The notes beneath the pieces are model-generated. The model was not told the DNA's origin. It saw only the letters and a program-made list of their open reading frames with translations, and ran no database searches. From the sequence record NC_048186.1: a DNA stretch of 64,000 bases; one strand, written 5' to 3'. This stretch comes from Escherichia phage vB_EcoM_KWBSE43-6. The first letter of the stretch is position 1. Each line of letters starts with the position of its first letter. Below, one piece after another: positions 1-52,943 of the stretch. The position numbers and the translations under genes are program-made.

Positions 1-2328
1 ATGACAGATATCCTTGAAAAATTTGGCAACCTGTTAAAAGAAGCTGCGACGCCGGAAGATATCCCGGTTCCATTTGATGTGCGCGGTGATGTTACCCACA
101 AACTCACCTTCCGTAAGGGGCGGGCGAAGAACTTCCGTTCTATTGGTAATGAATTCATGGAAATTGATTACCAACGAAACCCAGCAACGCTCGTCACATC
201 TGATGATAATGGTGCCGGGAAATCCACCATGTTGGTCTGGCTGTTATTCTTTGTCCTGTACAACGATACTTACAGCAAGAAAGAGAAGAAGGCCGGGCTG
301 GTAAACTCTCAGAACAAAAAAGACTGTGTGGGAGAAGTGGAATTTGCCTGCCGGGGTAGTGAATGGAAGGTCCGCCGTGGGATCAAACCCGACTTCGTTG
401 AAGTTCATCAGCTGGTTGATGGGGAATGGAAACAGGTTGTAAACGAAGCGGCTAAAGCCGACATGAACAAGTATATCGTCAACCTGATCGGCATCGACCA
501 GAAAATGTTTGAAAACTCCCTGGTTCTGGGTAAAGAGAAATTCATCCCGTTCACGGAAATGTATACGGCTGACCGCCGTACCATGGTGGAAGCGATATGG
601 GATCTCGGCTTCTTCAGCCTGATGAACGAAGACGTCAAGGCAAAGATCAAGGTGCTCAACAAAACGTTGGAAGACATTTCCAATGATTTTGGTATGAAAA
701 TGATTGATCATACCAACAAAAAGACGCAGCTGGCACAGATCATTGAATCCAATAACCGCATCCAACAACAGTCTGCCGAAATCCTGGAGCAGGAACGGAT
801 CCGGCTTTCCAGTCTGGATGCGGATATTTCTTCGTACCAAGATGAAATGGCCCGGCTACAGGAAGTCGAAGTCAACACCAAAAAGGAAATTGGTGAAGTA
901 GAAAGTCGTCTCAATCAAGAATCTACTGAAGAGATAGAAAATCTAAAGGCACAATATGCCGAGAAGATGAAAGCAGTAGATGATATTGCATCAGATAAAG
1001 CTGAGGACTATGAGCGTATAGAATTGTCTTCGGCTGAGCAGGCGCTTAACAATATCCGAGACCAAGCCCGTAAGGTCACTGAACGCAAGAACGAAGTACT
1101 CAACCAGCGCAATGAGAATCTGAATGTTCTCAACGAAGCGATGGAAAGGATGCGTTATGGCGAAGGTTTCAGGATCAAATTCCAAACCGAAAAAGAAGGG
1201 TATCAGGAATCCATTCAGAAGTTCCATGATATGGGTACTTGCCCAACTTGCCAACAAGAAGTATCTGAAGAAGCTAAATCCCAGGTCCAATACGAAGGCA
1301 ACATCAAAATTAAAGATGTAGATTCCCGTATTGAACGACTGGAAACTATGCTGGAAGAAATCAATACCACCATAGCAGAGCACAAAGCGAAGGATGATGA
1401 ATTTGTTCGCCAGATCGCCGAAATCGATTCTGAGTTAAGTTCTCTGCGAGACCAAGCGGCAGAAGCGCATAATGGTATTGAAACGATTAAACGGGATATT
1501 CAGGAGTTCTACAAAACTGCTGAAATTGAGAAGGCTTCTCTTGACCGTGAACTCAAATCTCAAATCCTGTCTAACCGCCAGGCACTGAACACCAGGTTCG
1601 ATGACATTACGGCATCATTACAACAAACGTTAGAGACAGCCTCTCAGGGGCGCGCAACTGTCAAGGATAAGATCGGCGAGCTGAAAGCCCGTCGTGCCCC
1701 TCTCGTTGCTTCGATTGCCGATTTAGAGCGTAAACTATCCGTACAGCCGACTCCAACTGCCGACCTGGAAGCAGTCATTGCGGGTATTGAACAATCTCTG
1801 AAAGATCTGGAAGAACGACGCCAAACGACAGATGAAGAACTTCAGGATCATAATCATCTTCTCCACTTCTTGAAGGATGACCAGACCAAGGCCCGCATTA
1901 TCTCCTTGTACCTGCCATTCTTGAATAAGAAGATCAATGAATATCTGGAAGGGATGAATATGTTCTTGGACATTTCTGTGGACGATACGTTTGATATCAC
2001 CATGGGAACCGCCGGGCGTAAAGGGCAAAGTCTCTTCAGCTTATCTTCCGGCCAGCGCGTCCGTGTTAACATTGCCATCACCATGGCTCTGCGTGACGTC
2101 GCTAATCTGAAAGCATCTGTCCAATGTAACATACTGGTGTTTGACGAAGTGCTGGAGAATCTTTCTGAGCGCGGTGTACAAGAATGCATTGAGATGCTGA
2201 AATACAAATTCAGCAATAATAATCTCTTCGTCATCAGTCAACGTGAGCAGGAATTCCAAGAATACTTTTCTCATAACATTCGTTATGGTCTGCGGAACGG
2301 TATGACCCAGGTGATCAGCAAAGAGTGA
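1..2328 (+). CDS. Recombination endonuclease ATPase subunit, SbcC/Rad50 family (T4 gp46-like)
   Basis: 775 aa; Walker A NGAGKST near N-terminus; long coiled-coil middle with CPTC zinc-hook-like motif (T4 gp46 has CPTC at the equivalent place); ABC signature/Walker B region near C-terminus (LSSGQ, ILVFDEV). Confidence 0.8.
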   Translation: MTDILEKFGNLLKEAATPEDIPVPFDVRGDVTHKLTFRKGRAKNFRSIGNEFMEIDYQRNPATLVTSDDNGAGKSTMLVWLLFFVLYNDTYSKKEKKAGLVNSQNKKDCVGEVEFACRGSEWKVRRGIKPDFVEVHQLVDGEWKQVVNEAAKADMNKYIVNLIGIDQKMFENSLVLGKEKFIPFTEMYTADRRTMVEAIWDLGFFSLMNEDVKAKIKVLNKTLEDISNDFGMKMIDHTNKKTQLAQIIESNNRIQQQSAEILEQERIRLSSLDADISSYQDEMARLQEVEVNTKKEIGEVESRLNQESTEEIENLKAQYAEKMKAVDDIASDKAEDYERIELSSAEQALNNIRDQARKVTERKNEVLNQRNENLNVLNEAMERMRYGEGFRIKFQTEKEGYQESIQKFHDMGTCPTCQQEVSEEAKSQVQYEGNIKIKDVDSRIERLETMLEEINTTIAEHKAKDDEFVRQIAEIDSELSSLRDQAAEAHNGIETIKRDIQEFYKTAEIEKASLDRELKSQILSNRQALNTRFDDITASLQQTLETASQGRATVKDKIGELKARRAPLVASIADLERKLSVQPTPTADLEAVIAGIEQSLKDLEERRQTTDEELQDHNHLLHFLKDDQTKARIISLYLPFLNKKINEYLEGMNMFLDISVDDTFDITMGTAGRKGQSLFSLSSGQRVRVNIAITMALRDVANLKASVQCNILVFDEVLENLSERGVQECIEMLKYKFSNNNLFVISQREQEFQEYFSHNIRYGLRNGMTQVISKE

Positions 2329-50261: not shown

Positions 50262-50648
50262 TTAGTTCAGGCAGATTTCTCGCCCCAGCGCAGTCAGGCG
50301 ATAGAACTGGATCACTTCCCCACGAGCATAGCGATAATTGCCGTCAGGGGCGTCATGACCGCCATCATGGGTTACAGTAAACCAAGGCTCAATCAACCCT
50401 TTCTTGAGTAGAGACTCCCCGGTTTGGGTATCCCAAGGATCACCCAGGACGTTGGTCAGATGCCGGCTCGGGGTAAAATTCCAAACGCGGACACCTTTAG
50501 AATTTTTCCAGGATTTGGCATAACGTTTGGAATTGATAATAAGCCGGTTGCTGTCTTCAGATTTCAACATACCGAACATATAATTCAATTGATGGCCCGT
50601 ATAGCGAGGCCACTTTTGAGTTTTCACAACAGTATCTTTCGTTTTCAT
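50262..50648 (-). CDS. Hypothetical protein
   Basis: 128 aa ORF. Confidence 0.4.
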   Translation of the reverse strand: MKTKDTVVKTQKWPRYTGHQLNYMFGMLKSEDSNRLIINSKRYAKSWKNSKGVRVWNFTPSRHLTNVLGDPWDTQTGESLLKKGLIEPWFTVTHDGGHDAPDGNYRYARGEVIQFYRLTALGREICLN

Positions 50649-51016
50649 AATATTCCCGCTCTTTCAAGGATAATTTCAACTTCACCCCAATCCACAAAGG
50701 GGCGCTTAGACATTGGGTCATAACTCAGAGGACAACCAAGAGCAGCGTCGTCAATATACAATTGCGCATATGCTTTTGGTGAATCTGTCCATTCATGCTG
50801 TGTGGGATTCTTGTTGATACCATACAGCGGGATATCAAATGACTGGAACCAATCAACCGCTTCTTCAAGTTGTTTCCCGCTGCGCATGGTGAACAGAATC
50901 AGAAGATGATTTTTATCCACCAACTTCTTTAGAATCTCTACAGCACCGATATGGCGTCCGATGAGAGGGTATTCATGGGTAACGCACGTCCCATCAAAAT
51001 CGATACCGATTATCAT
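50645..51016 (-). CDS. HAD-superfamily phosphatase (small)
   Basis: N-terminal GIDFDGT (DxDGT motif I); 123 aa. Confidence 0.55.
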
Positions 51017-51585
51017 AATGATTCCCCATTGTGAAGCTGTAACAGTTCTTTAAACGTAGCCGGGCGGCGTAAATGATCCCAGCTTGAGTTCAGGTAATCC
51101 GGGTTCCCTACTTTGCGGGAATGCCAATGCCCGTGAACATTATATTCCCAACGATCCAGGAGTACGGGCACATGAGTGACAATCACTTTGGAAACGCTGC
51201 CGTCACTCCGAGCCATCTTGTATTCAAACAAAGAACCGAATTTGCTGATCCATTCACTTAGGAATAACTGCATCAGCATTGAAAAACTGTCGTGGTTCCC
51301 CTGAGTTACTTTGATGTTGAAGTTGGGCCGCCAATCATCAGGAACCTTACCATGCATCTTTGGTAGGTTACGCGCCGCGCCTTCTCGCATCAGTTCGATG
51401 AACGCATCTGGGCCACCGAAGCATGTGTCGCCCGTAATGATCAAGGAATCATCCCGGCCACACGTTTGGAATATGCTGTCGATAACTGCGATGTCGTGTT
51501 CATCAACTGTTTCAAACCCACGTGATTTGGGGATCTTTTTATGTTTCAGGTGGGGATCACCCAAAAAGAAAACTTTACCCGCCAT
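51013..51585 (-). CDS. Calcineurin-like metallophosphoesterase (lambda-PPase/ApaH-like)
   Basis: Motifs GDPH, GDT, GNHD, GHWH in canonical order; start at ATG 51585 with GAGGA RBS. Confidence 0.6.
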
Positions 51586-52036
51586 ATTCTTTTCCTCTGA
51601 GATCATTATAGAAATTGATTAACATATTGTCAGTCCATCCTGACCAGTCGAATACATCAAAATCAGCCACACCTTGGTACATATTGACGATAGCAGGCGA
51701 AAATATGACATCAACCTGATTTTTATCGTTGTCATTCACCTGAACTTTGATCCAGAACAAAGATCGGTCTTCCAGAATATGTGCCAATTTAGGATAACGA
51801 GAGGATATTTCCAATGCCCACACATCTAATATAGAACGAAAATCATCTTCCATTTTATAAATGAATGCCGTGGAAATCGGATGGCCAAGATATGGACTCC
51901 AGGATTTATATTGTGTTACTTCCTGGATGCTGGACACCAATGGTATCACCAATCCCCGCTGATATTGTGCTGACAAAGAAGGGATAGAATTAAGATATGA
52001 CAATATCTCTTCACGCTGAATCTGTGTTAATTTCAT
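51575..52036 (-). CDS. Hypothetical protein
   Basis: 153 aa ORF, overlapping stop/start with the QueC-like gene. Confidence 0.4.
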
Positions 52037-52698
52037 TTTAGTCCCACCTCATAACGATGACGAGTACAGGCCATACAATCGCAGTTCTTTTTCAGAACCG
52101 GATATTCACACCAGGTCATCATCCCGTAAAGAGGACGAAGGGCTTCATAAAACCAGGCTTTCTTCAACCCGATCATGGGGAACAACAATTCAGCCGGGCG
52201 ATTTTGTGGATCAGCCAACATAGCATACCCTTCCATGATCTTATTGAAGGAACGGATATACTGCAGGGCATCATCACCGTTCACATATGCCATGACATAC
52301 GTCTCAGGATAGATAGATGCAAGCTGAGTGCCAAGCAACCATATTGGGGCTTGGGCCAATGCTGAACGGAAAGGGCCAGCTGCTTCTACCTTTAATATAG
52401 GGATTTCATCATTGTCCCAATGTTGTGTTAATTCTGGACGATATTTTTCTGCCCATTGTCTGATCTTTTTCCTAGACCACATTTCACGCCGGGACTTGAA
52501 CGAGTTGTTCTCCAGGTCGCAGTAGATCGTCCGGACATAATATCCGTGAGAAAGCAACCAGAACAGCATGTATGTACTGTCAACACCGCCAGACCAGAAC
52601 AAAGTCACACTCTTATCATTGAAATGCATGGGTAACTTTTGTCCTTCCAACACGTCGCGTACAAATTCTCTGTCATTGAATTCTACATTGATTTCCAT
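52033..52698 (-). CDS. PP-loop ATP pyrophosphatase, QueC-like (7-cyano-7-deazaguanine synthase family)
   Basis: SGGVDST PP-loop at residues 36-42; C-terminal TWCEY-x8-CDCMAC-x2-R resembling the QueC zinc-binding Cys cluster; 221 aa. Confidence 0.55.
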   Translation of the reverse strand: MEINVEFNDREFVRDVLEGQKLPMHFNDKSVTLFWSGGVDSTYMLFWLLSHGYYVRTIYCDLENNSFKSRREMWSRKKIRQWAEKYRPELTQHWDNDEIPILKVEAAGPFRSALAQAPIWLLGTQLASIYPETYVMAYVNGDDALQYIRSFNKIMEGYAMLADPQNRPAELLFPMIGLKKAWFYEALRPLYGMMTWCEYPVLKKNCDCMACTRHRYEVGLK

Positions 52699-52700
52699 GA

Positions 52701-52943
52701 TTACGCCTTAATCATTCCGAGAGCCTGGGCAATATACCGTTCCGCCCCCTTTAAAGAATCCTTAATGATCTTATAGAATTCTTCCCTGGTCACAATATGA
52801 CTATCAGCCATATACGTGTTGGTCGTAATGCCGTGAGAATCACGGGCATAATGATGGTATAATTCTACACCACCAACATTGAATGTGACAGTTCTGGTAC
52901 GGGATATGCTCATGATTTGTCTCGGGTTAGATAGATATATCAC
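52701..52943 (-). CDS. Hypothetical small protein
   Basis: 80 aa ORF; stop overlaps QueC-like start (TAATCATG). Confidence 0.3.
   Translation of the reverse strand: MIYLSNPRQIMSISRTRTVTFNVGGVELYHHYARDSHGITTNTYMADSHIVTREEFYKIIKDSLKGAERYIAQALGMIKA

Follow-up and report, generated by a model that had tools for sequence, protein, structure and literature searches.

A QueC-like PP-loop ATP pyrophosphatase of Escherichia phage vB_EcoM_KWBSE43-6 and its apparently virus-restricted family

The QueC-like gene and its predicted motifs

The 64,000-nucleotide stretch of Escherichia phage vB_EcoM_KWBSE43-6 that we analyzed (sequence record NC_048186.1, hereafter the window) carries a gene for a QueC-like PP-loop ATP pyrophosphatase belonging to the PHROG 1550 family (Table 1). 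QueC-family enzymes were long thought to have a single job, making 7-cyano-7-deazaguanine (preQ0). The initial annotation of this gene, based on the sequence of the window, raised both a link to 7-deazaguanine modification of phage DNA and the alternative of a different substrate. The open reading frame (ORF) is a real gene and not a chance ORF, since its product matches the phrog_1550 profile over its full length (residues 1–219, E = 3.1e-68, 231 bits), the ratio of nonsynonymous to synonymous substitution rates (dN/dS) with respect to its orthologs is low (0.07–0.17), and AlphaFold2 yields a confident model (predicted local distance difference test score, pLDDT, 85; predicted template modeling score, 0.87). 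The gene is thus under purifying selection. An AAGG Shine-Dalgarno-like motif lies 7 nt 5' of the start codon, and the stop codon overlaps the start of the next gene in an ATGA sequence. The window region shares 96% identity with Klebsiella phage 0507-KN2-1, a member of the genus Taipeivirus (Ackermannviridae), and the first gene of the 0507-KN2-1 record, encoding a recombination endonuclease subunit, occupies positions 1..2328 in both sequences; the window therefore corresponds to the initial 64 kb of a Taipeivirus genome and has the orientation of that record.

Table 1. Positions in the window of the QueC-like gene, of the predicted motifs of its product and of the indel that covers it
Feature	Position	Strand	Remarks
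QueC-like PP-loop ATP pyrophosphatase gene, PHROG 1550 member	52033..52698	-	221 aa, ATG start
Putative PP-loop S36-G-G-V-D-S-T42 (ATP pyrophosphate-binding loop), preceded by conserved W35	52573..52593	-	Alignment to QueC and Cap9
N64-N65-x2-K68-x3-E72 motif	52483..52509	-	At the position of YxQxHxxE of QueC; hidden Markov model (HMM) alignment to QueC
Y138-V-N-G-D142-D143-A144 loop, before helix 143-160	52267..52287	-	Site of the substrate-recognition loop (YPDC in QueC, YxDC in Cap9)
Predicted four-Cys zinc-knuckle motif W-C197-E-x7-C206-x-C208-x2-C211	52066..52110	-	Alignment to QueC 3bl5 and Cap9 9nto_B
N-terminal extension, ~28 aa	52615..52698	-	In Ackermannviridae-like close homologs and a few next-nearest relatives
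Single-gene indel, 667 bp	52041..52707		19 bp in its place in Klebsiella phage phi1_146021; both flanks 98% identical (blastn)

The predicted protein has the features of the PP-loop superfamily, with an SGGxDS loop after the first beta strand and a Rossmann-like (HUP) fold. The loop, recognized from the outset, reads SGGVDS at residues 36–41 and lines up with SGGQDST of QueC and SGGMDS of Cap9, the QueC-family protein of type IV CBASS (PDB 9NTO chain B; CBASS, cyclic oligonucleotide-based antiphage signaling system). The PP-loop is invariant in 22 close homologs and near-invariant in 145 distant family members. Residues N64, N65 and E72 of the second motif are conserved family-wide, and Y138 and D142 of the third are invariant or nearly so, the secondary structure around this loop being taken from the AlphaFold2 model. 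The N-terminal extension was modeled at pLDDT 90–97; most distant family members begin 5–12 residues ahead of the PP-loop. The window protein has a neutral isoelectric point (6.9), the same as the family median.

The C-terminal region contains four cysteines (C197-x8-C206-x-C208-x2-C211), followed by R213, H214 and R215, that would form the zinc site. All four are kept in 20 of 20 full-length close homologs and in 142–145 of 145 distant members, and the predicted motif aligns to the zinc motifs of QueC (3bl5) and Cap9 (9nto_B). The proposed resemblance to the zinc site of QueC is borne out by this alignment and by the proximity of QueC in fold and profile comparisons. The cluster had been written as TWCEY-x8-CDCMAC; the cysteines are real, but the spacer was miscounted, since the eight residues lie between C197 and C206 and only six separate Tyr199 from Cys206. 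The CxC that replaces CxxC had also been singled out as atypical, and rightly so: the canonical CxxCxxC was found in 114 of 170 family representatives and CxCxxC in 33, including all 20 full-length close homologs of the window protein. By alignment, this spacing is a one-residue deletion of the QueC-type C(x)8CxxCxxC confined to one subclade and, allowing for this deletion, the protein has the putative zinc motif of the QueC superfamily.

Placement in the QueC branch of PP-loop enzymes

A family profile built from 76 PHROG 1550-type relatives matched QueC 3bl5 (E = 2.7e-11), Cap9 (3e-9) and QueC 2pg3 (4e-8) over their full length, including the zinc motif. All other PP-loop families yielded values of 1e-3 or worse and aligned with the N-terminus only, the NadE, TilS, ThiI and Ncs6-type families being limited to the PP-loop region. 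The search for a better match among non-QueC families of this kind, proposed in the initial annotation as a check, thus returned none. The hhalign probabilities were 97.8% for Cap9 and 96.5% for QueC, and a fold comparison identified the same two proteins as the closest relatives of the window protein. The Pfam model for QueC (PF06508) was matched by 74 of the 76 family members; with the window protein alone it gave 22.0 bits, a value equal to the gathering cutoff (22), over residues 32–80 only. On the basis of the full-length matches to QueC and Cap9, the restriction of the other families to the N-terminus and the PF06508 matches, the window protein is a genuine member of the QueC branch. No recurrent extra Pfam domains were found in the longer members of the family.

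Evidence against the synthesis of preQ0

The window protein shares with QueC (Bacillus subtilis 3BL5, Escherichia coli; cluster 1 of PF06508) the SGGxDS loop, a length of ~220 aa and a four-Cys zinc motif with a C-x8-C start. However, it differs from QueC in the CxC of the zinc motif, in the lack of linkage to queD and queE, in belonging to an apparently virus-restricted family and, above all, in the residues of the substrate pocket. The canonical QueC signature comprises YxQxHxxE, VPxRN, YPDC and Tyr189, and residues Y35, R99, Y131 and Y189 were found to be essential by mutagenesis (Libby et al. 2026, PMC13329287). This signature is not conserved in the phage family, which has Y-x2-[IL]-x-N-N-x2-K-x3-E, Q-x-P-x-W, Y-V-x-[NG]-D-D-A and W-C-E in the corresponding places. 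In the HMM alignment to QueC, Leu62 (Leu or Ile in the family) stands at the essential Tyr35, Asn64 at Gln, Gln116 at Arg99 and the invariant Glu198 at Tyr189; the Glu at the end of YxQxHxxE is kept, as Glu72. The base-binding loop, which provides a base-stacking Tyr and a base-reading Asp in QueC and Cap9, is shorter in the window protein and lacks the YPDC string, with YVx[NG]DDA in its place, but HMMER against QueC, HMMER against Cap9 and hhalign aligned this loop in three different registers, so the residue mapping is uncertain. The score against TIGR00364, the QueC equivalog model, was 15.2 bits, whereas the cutoff is 150.3.

The genes that would be expected to accompany preQ0 synthesis were searched for with phmmer, using the proteins of phage 9g as queries against six-frame ORFs. 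FolE, QueD, QueE and DpdA had no match in the 64-kb window, in the complete genome of 0507-KN2-1 or in 80 viral loci up to 8 kb from the QueC-like gene; DpdA of 9g gave nothing below E = 0.02 anywhere, although a single-sequence query could miss a very divergent DpdA. No DpdA/TGT, FolE, QueD or QueE was present in the PHROG-style annotation of 0507-KN2-1 either. The absence of these genes from the window, reported initially, is therefore upheld, and the proposed extension of the search to a whole genome gave the same result in this close relative. Gat-QueC of 9g did not match the window protein even at E < 10. The 7-deazaguanine module of 9g resembles the present case in carrying a QueC-family gene, but in 9g DpdA, FolE, QueD, Gat-QueC and QueE are clustered, whereas DpdA, FolE, QueD and QueE were undetected here. 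Cui et al. 2023 (PMC10516641) consider DpdA a signature shared by every phage whose DNA carries 7-deazaguanine.

Published nucleoside analyses point in the same direction. Liquid chromatography–mass spectrometry of DNA from phages ViI and CBA120 and Vibrio phage 1.255.O revealed the four canonical nucleosides and 5-(2-aminoethoxy)methyl-2'-deoxyuridine (5-NeOmdU) only, and 5-NeOmdU was reconstituted with five other ViI genes, none of which encodes a PP-loop enzyme (Lee et al. 2018, PMC5889632). We confirmed the presence of an ortholog of the QueC-like gene in two of these three phages, ViI and 1.255.O. Hutinet et al. 2019 (PMC6884629) flagged the QueC-like singleton of phage ECML-4, placed it outside the pathway and concluded that it had a different substrate. 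That singleton and the proteins labeled "QueC-like queuosine biosynthesis" in PHROG 1550 belong to one and the same family, of which the window copy is the Taipeivirus version, carried by a minority of the genus.

We therefore rejected a canonical QueC in view of the TIGR00364 score, the lack of signature residues and of pathway genes, and the published nucleoside data, and we infer that the window protein neither makes preQ0 nor puts 7-deazaguanine into phage DNA. The suggested link to this modification is not sustained, given the lack of partners, the absence of essential QueC residues and the finding of 5-NeOmdU alone in the DNA of phages bearing an ortholog; a different substrate is the best fit among the alternatives first put forward. 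A role in thymidine hypermodification to 5-NeOmdU was also discarded, as five other ViI genes are enough to make this base and most Taipeiviruses lack the QueC-like gene, and so was a link to tRNA, as the window contains no tRNA genes.

Family size and genomic context in other viruses

An exhaustive HMMER search with a profile of close homologs yielded 1,484 clusters at 50% identity with E ≤ 1e-3, and 679 with E ≤ 1e-10. Outside the Ackermannviridae, the family includes proteins from the jumbo phages RSF1, Noxifer, FLC phages and HPP-Temi, from many uncultivated viral contigs and, as judged by fold, from Mycobacterium phage Muddy. No cellular relative was confirmed in 185,579 species genomes scanned with one peptide pattern and tblastn, and the search for cellular relatives with informative operons was abandoned on this result. 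The PHROG 1550 family is, on this sequence survey, apparently virus-restricted. The names of the distant members were uninformative, the sole name being "putative alpha hydrolase".

The genomic context was surveyed in 67 viral loci from outside the Ackermannviridae. In 40 of these loci, the order was SNF2 helicase, (120-aa ORF), QueC-like gene, family B DNA polymerase, one further gene and Nudix; the QueC-like proteins of this group are 37–100% identical to one another and fall into 10 clusters at 60% identity. Three other loci had SNF2, the QueC-like gene and a family A polymerase. Additional neighbors were an NT5C nucleotidase, a deoxynucleoside monophosphate (dNMP) kinase, a class II ribonucleotide reductase, DnaB, topoisomerase II and a PARP-WGR protein. 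Two unrelated viral contigs (L077 8889-9392; L033) have a nucleoside 2-deoxyribosyltransferase-like gene (PF15891, E = 4e-18) directly 3' of the QueC-like gene, an arrangement reminiscent of the linkage to deoxyribosyltransferases described for "cluster 4" of PF06508 in bacteria. What these contexts have in common is not queuosine but the replication of DNA and the metabolism of nucleotides.

In 31 loci of the SNF2 and family B polymerase group, the 120-aa ORF lies 3–7 bp upstream of the QueC-like gene (e.g., L029 4514-4876, L021 7675-8040 and L050 893-1255). Its best-conserved part is the N-terminus, M-G/A-x2-Y-x-W-x2-N-P-F-x-D. It had no Pfam match, neither the window nor any Ackermannviridae locus yielded a homolog of it, and many loci of the SNF2 and family B polymerase group lack it. 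The 120-aa protein is a possible substrate or partner of the QueC-like enzyme, as judged from the analogy with QatB and CdnD.

A DNA-modification context was seen for the family only in two contigs, L091 and L092. In the latter, a T4-like contig with 33% GC, a homolog with 36% identity to the window protein is flanked by Mom-like (PF25680) and Dam-like N6-adenine methyltransferase (PF02086) genes (L092 2918-5465), which are followed by glutaredoxin, SegE and NrdD. In another, uncultivated viral locus, an ORF about 6 kb from the PHROG-1550-type gene (L022 1407-2228) matched Gat-QueC of 9g (E = 3.8e-8) and could encode another amidotransferase or QueC-type protein.

Distribution in the Ackermannviridae

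The window gene is part of a block of genes transcribed leftwards, which includes a deoxycytidine monophosphate deaminase, confirmed by Pfam, and, according to the annotation of relatives, a phosphoesterase, a small HAD-like phosphatase, DexA exonuclease, a macro-domain protein and topoisomerase II. Orthologs with ~55% identity occupy the same position in the Kuttervirus phages ViI (Vi01_023), ECML-4 and PhaxI, the ECML-4 protein (YP_009101458) being 56% identical to that of the window, and uncultured relatives have the same gene layout. Of the 197 phage records in which the QueC-like protein occurs, 149 are from Salmonella phages. Within Taipeivirus, the gene is accessory and dispensable, and it is missing from most of the genus: 45 Klebsiella phage records match the region at the DNA level and seven encode the protein, and in phi1_146021 the gene is cleanly replaced (Table 1).

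The neighboring small genes of the Ackermannviridae are independent cassettes, and the small early genes of this region seem to come and go singly. The 153-aa ORF just downstream (51575..52036, minus strand), which shares the ATGA with the stop of the QueC-like gene, had no Pfam match and is itself a cassette (51627-52040), kept in phi1_146021, while 14 bp stand in its place in 0507-KN2-1. Conversely, orf55 of 0507-KN2-1 (L001 11616-12000) is absent from the window. A conserved partner gene was sought in the Ackermannviridae and rejected, as the flanking small ORFs persist when the QueC-like gene is absent and the 120-aa ORF has no homolog there.

Possible function of the phage QueC-like enzymes

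On balance, we lean towards the window protein being a functional enzyme of a large, apparently virus-restricted QueC branch that would carry out an ATP-dependent adenylation of a carboxylate followed by amide formation, by analogy with QueC and Cap9, in an auxiliary role in nucleotide or DNA metabolism. With Mg-ATP bound in its PP-loop, the enzyme would activate a small, planar and probably nucleobase-like substrate by adenylation of a carboxylate, with the release of pyrophosphate. Attack on the acyl-adenylate by an amine, either ammonia or an amino group, would yield an amide, a step modeled on QueC, which uses ammonia, and on Cap9, which uses a protein N-terminus. The role of such an enzyme would probably be auxiliary to the nucleotide or DNA metabolism of the phage, in keeping with the place of the gene in the leftward block of the Ackermannviridae and beside the DNA polymerase and SNF2 helicase genes of uncultivated phages.

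Two bacterial immune proteins of the QueC family provide further comparisons. Like Cap9, the phage family has a compact single domain, an FP/PF..K motif and a zinc motif that starts with "CE" (142 of 170 family members). Unlike the phage family, Cap9 is bacterial and retains the core that binds 7-carboxy-7-deazaguanine (CDG), namely Y/FxQ(x)5E, RN and H(x)4YxDC(xxxF), and it is encoded beside a CD-NTase and Cap10, neither of which was found near the window gene. QatC, from the QatABCD system, resembles the phage family in having kept the PP-loop and a variant zinc motif and lost the canonical CDG-recognition residues, and it therefore provides a precedent for a remodeled QueC pocket. However, QatC has ~400 aa, is extended at both termini, carries a C(x)19CGxCxxRR motif and is encoded in an operon with qatA, qatB and qatD, and the family profile matched it marginally (9vlk, E = 0.65) and through the zinc motif only. 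The substrates of Cap9 and QatC are N-terminal glycines (PMC13279940), and QatC fails to complement an E. coli queC deletion (PMC13329287).

Several considerations weigh against an amide-forming enzyme of nucleotide or DNA metabolism. The proposed chemistry is extrapolated from QueC and Cap9, and the class of substrate is uncertain because other PP-loop enzymes (GuaA, TilS, ThiI, MnmA) activate ring carbonyls and not carboxylates. The genomic context is guilt by association and, in the Ackermannviridae, functional linkage is further weakened by the neighboring genes being independent cassettes. A cellular origin could have been missed, because the scan of cellular genomes used one peptide pattern. 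A deazaguanine-type pocket may also have been retained, given that the substrate loop was aligned in three registers, and D142 or D143 could match the Asp that reads the edge of the base and, with Y138 or Y147, might rebuild the base-binding dyad.

A more specific alternative, which we consider somewhat unlikely, is a ligase of the Cap9/QatC type that would join a purine or deazapurine carboxylate, such as CDG of the host, to the N-terminal amine of a phage or host immune protein, in counter-defense or mimicry of type IV CBASS or Qat. Cap9 was the single closest structure and profile match in the fold search and with hhalign, and the "CE" start and FP..K motif are held in common; moreover, the 120-aa protein encoded upstream in 31 uncultivated loci begins with Met-Gly/Ala, to be compared with the N-terminal glycine substrates, and the accessory presence of the gene in Taipeivirus is typical of counter-defense genes. 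However, the second position of proteins is often occupied by a small residue, which makes the conservation of Gly/Ala weak evidence, and the 120-aa ORF has no Ackermannviridae homolog and is often missing from its own group. The Y/FxQ(x)5E and H(x)4YxDC motifs have been lost, no CD-NTase, Cap10/TGT-like, QatA, QatB or QatD gene was found nearby, and a fixed site next to a DNA polymerase in lineages only 37% identical would be unusual for counter-defense. A broader version, unlikely in our view, is that the virus-restricted clade is the phage counterpart of the Cap9/QatC ligases and would use ATP to conjugate a nucleobase-like carboxylate to an amine, whether of a protein N-terminus, a nucleotide or a DNA base. 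The acceptor in uncultivated phages might be the upstream protein with a Gly/Ala N-terminus, within the SNF2 and DNA polymerase module, and in the Ackermannviridae the enzyme would be accessory, possibly acting in counter-defense.

The recurrence of DNA polymerase, SNF2 helicase, Nudix, dNMP kinase, nucleotidase and N-deoxyribosyltransferase-like genes around the family would also accord with an enzyme that modifies bases, adenylating a ring carbonyl or an appended carboxylate on DNA, tRNA or a dNMP base prior to amination or thiolation, and thereby producing a minor or as yet undetected modification. The homolog located between Mom-like and Dam-like genes, the weak N-terminal matches to ThiI, MnmA and TilS, and the amino-acid-derived thymidine hypermodifications of Ackermannviridae DNA could be taken in its favor. 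Nevertheless, this explanation is distinctly unlikely: the proteins have ~190–220 aa and no RNA- or DNA-binding domain and, with their neutral isoelectric point and the lack of a recurrent extra domain, a dedicated tRNA or DNA enzyme becomes less likely; the window has no tRNA genes, 5-NeOmdU was reconstituted without a QueC-like gene, and the gene is dispensable in most Taipeiviruses.

It is very improbable that the protein is, after all, a genuine preQ0 synthase that uses the CDG made by host FolE, QueD and QueE, boosting queuosine in tRNA or feeding a DNA transglycosylase encoded elsewhere. Enterobacterial hosts do make CDG, in the queuosine pathway, which speaks for this explanation, as do the QueC-type fold, PP-loop and zinc site and the Pfam match at exactly the gathering score. 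However, this match covers residues 32–80 only and TIGR00364 is far below its cutoff, essential QueC residues are replaced and the YPDC loop is rebuilt in the HMM alignment, and a DpdA/TGT was detected neither in the window nor in the complete genome of the relative. There was no deazaguanine peak in the DNA of ViI, CBA120 or 1.255.O (PMC5889632), the ECML-4 singleton has been excluded from the pathway (PMC6884629), and the host already has its own QueC. A decaying or non-catalytic remnant, such as a structural or regulatory moron, is hardly credible: most Taipeivirus genomes lack the gene and show no obvious compensation for it, but dN/dS is low, the ATP-loop and zinc residues are near-invariant across about 170 representatives, and the protein is present in 197 phage records.

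An amidation related to nicotinamide adenine dinucleotide (NAD), of the NadE or LarE type, was also considered, prompted by the macro-domain gene, by a PARP in one locus and by the Nudix genes. We retain this idea as a bare possibility because these associations are weak and NadE and LarE scored lower by fold.

The existence of the gene and its orphan status are already known from Hutinet et al. 2019 and PHROGs, so the initial finding is not new in itself and, for the window, the result is modest. No published function for the PHROG 1550 family was found in the literature. What is new here is the large, apparently virus-only clade with a pocket of its own, its fixed place by replication genes in many uncultivated phages and its presence or absence as a cassette in Taipeivirus. 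In 2025–2026, reuse of the QueC scaffold for attaching a nucleobase to a protein was demonstrated or proposed for two bacterial immune systems; the phage family represents a third, much larger and apparently virus-only branch, with ~1,500 clusters and its own conserved pocket residues. Determination of the reaction could reveal a new phage modification of nucleotides or proteins, or a counter-defense, and, if the conjugation of nucleobase-like carboxylates were confirmed, it would represent a new virus-encoded nucleobase conjugation or DNA-precursor modification. The label "QueC-like queuosine biosynthesis" is misleading for this gene and should not be taken to indicate 7-deazaguanine DNA in therapeutic phages of Klebsiella, Salmonella and E. 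coli.

Other observations on the region

Scans of the region for promoters, terminators and composition gave nothing distinctive, with a GC content of 0.39–0.54 and no discontinuity at the QueC-like gene. A gene at 50645..51016 (minus strand) of the window encodes a 123-aa protein labeled "phosphoheptose isomerase" in relatives; this label looks wrong, because the protein has the DFDGT motif of HAD phosphatases and no Pfam match. The same PHROG label was found 3 kb from the QueC-like gene in the Ralstonia jumbo phage RSF1 (ORF160, L086 2442-2903), and a cluster-mate occurs in an unrelated viral contig (L082 15482-15952). Outside the window, the 0507-KN2-1 genome has, according to its annotation, a "ribose-phosphate pyrophosphokinase" gene beside one for "nicotinamide phosphoribosyl transferase" (142416-144919; L004 29417-31920), a pair that we take to resemble a phage NAD+ reconstitution pathway.

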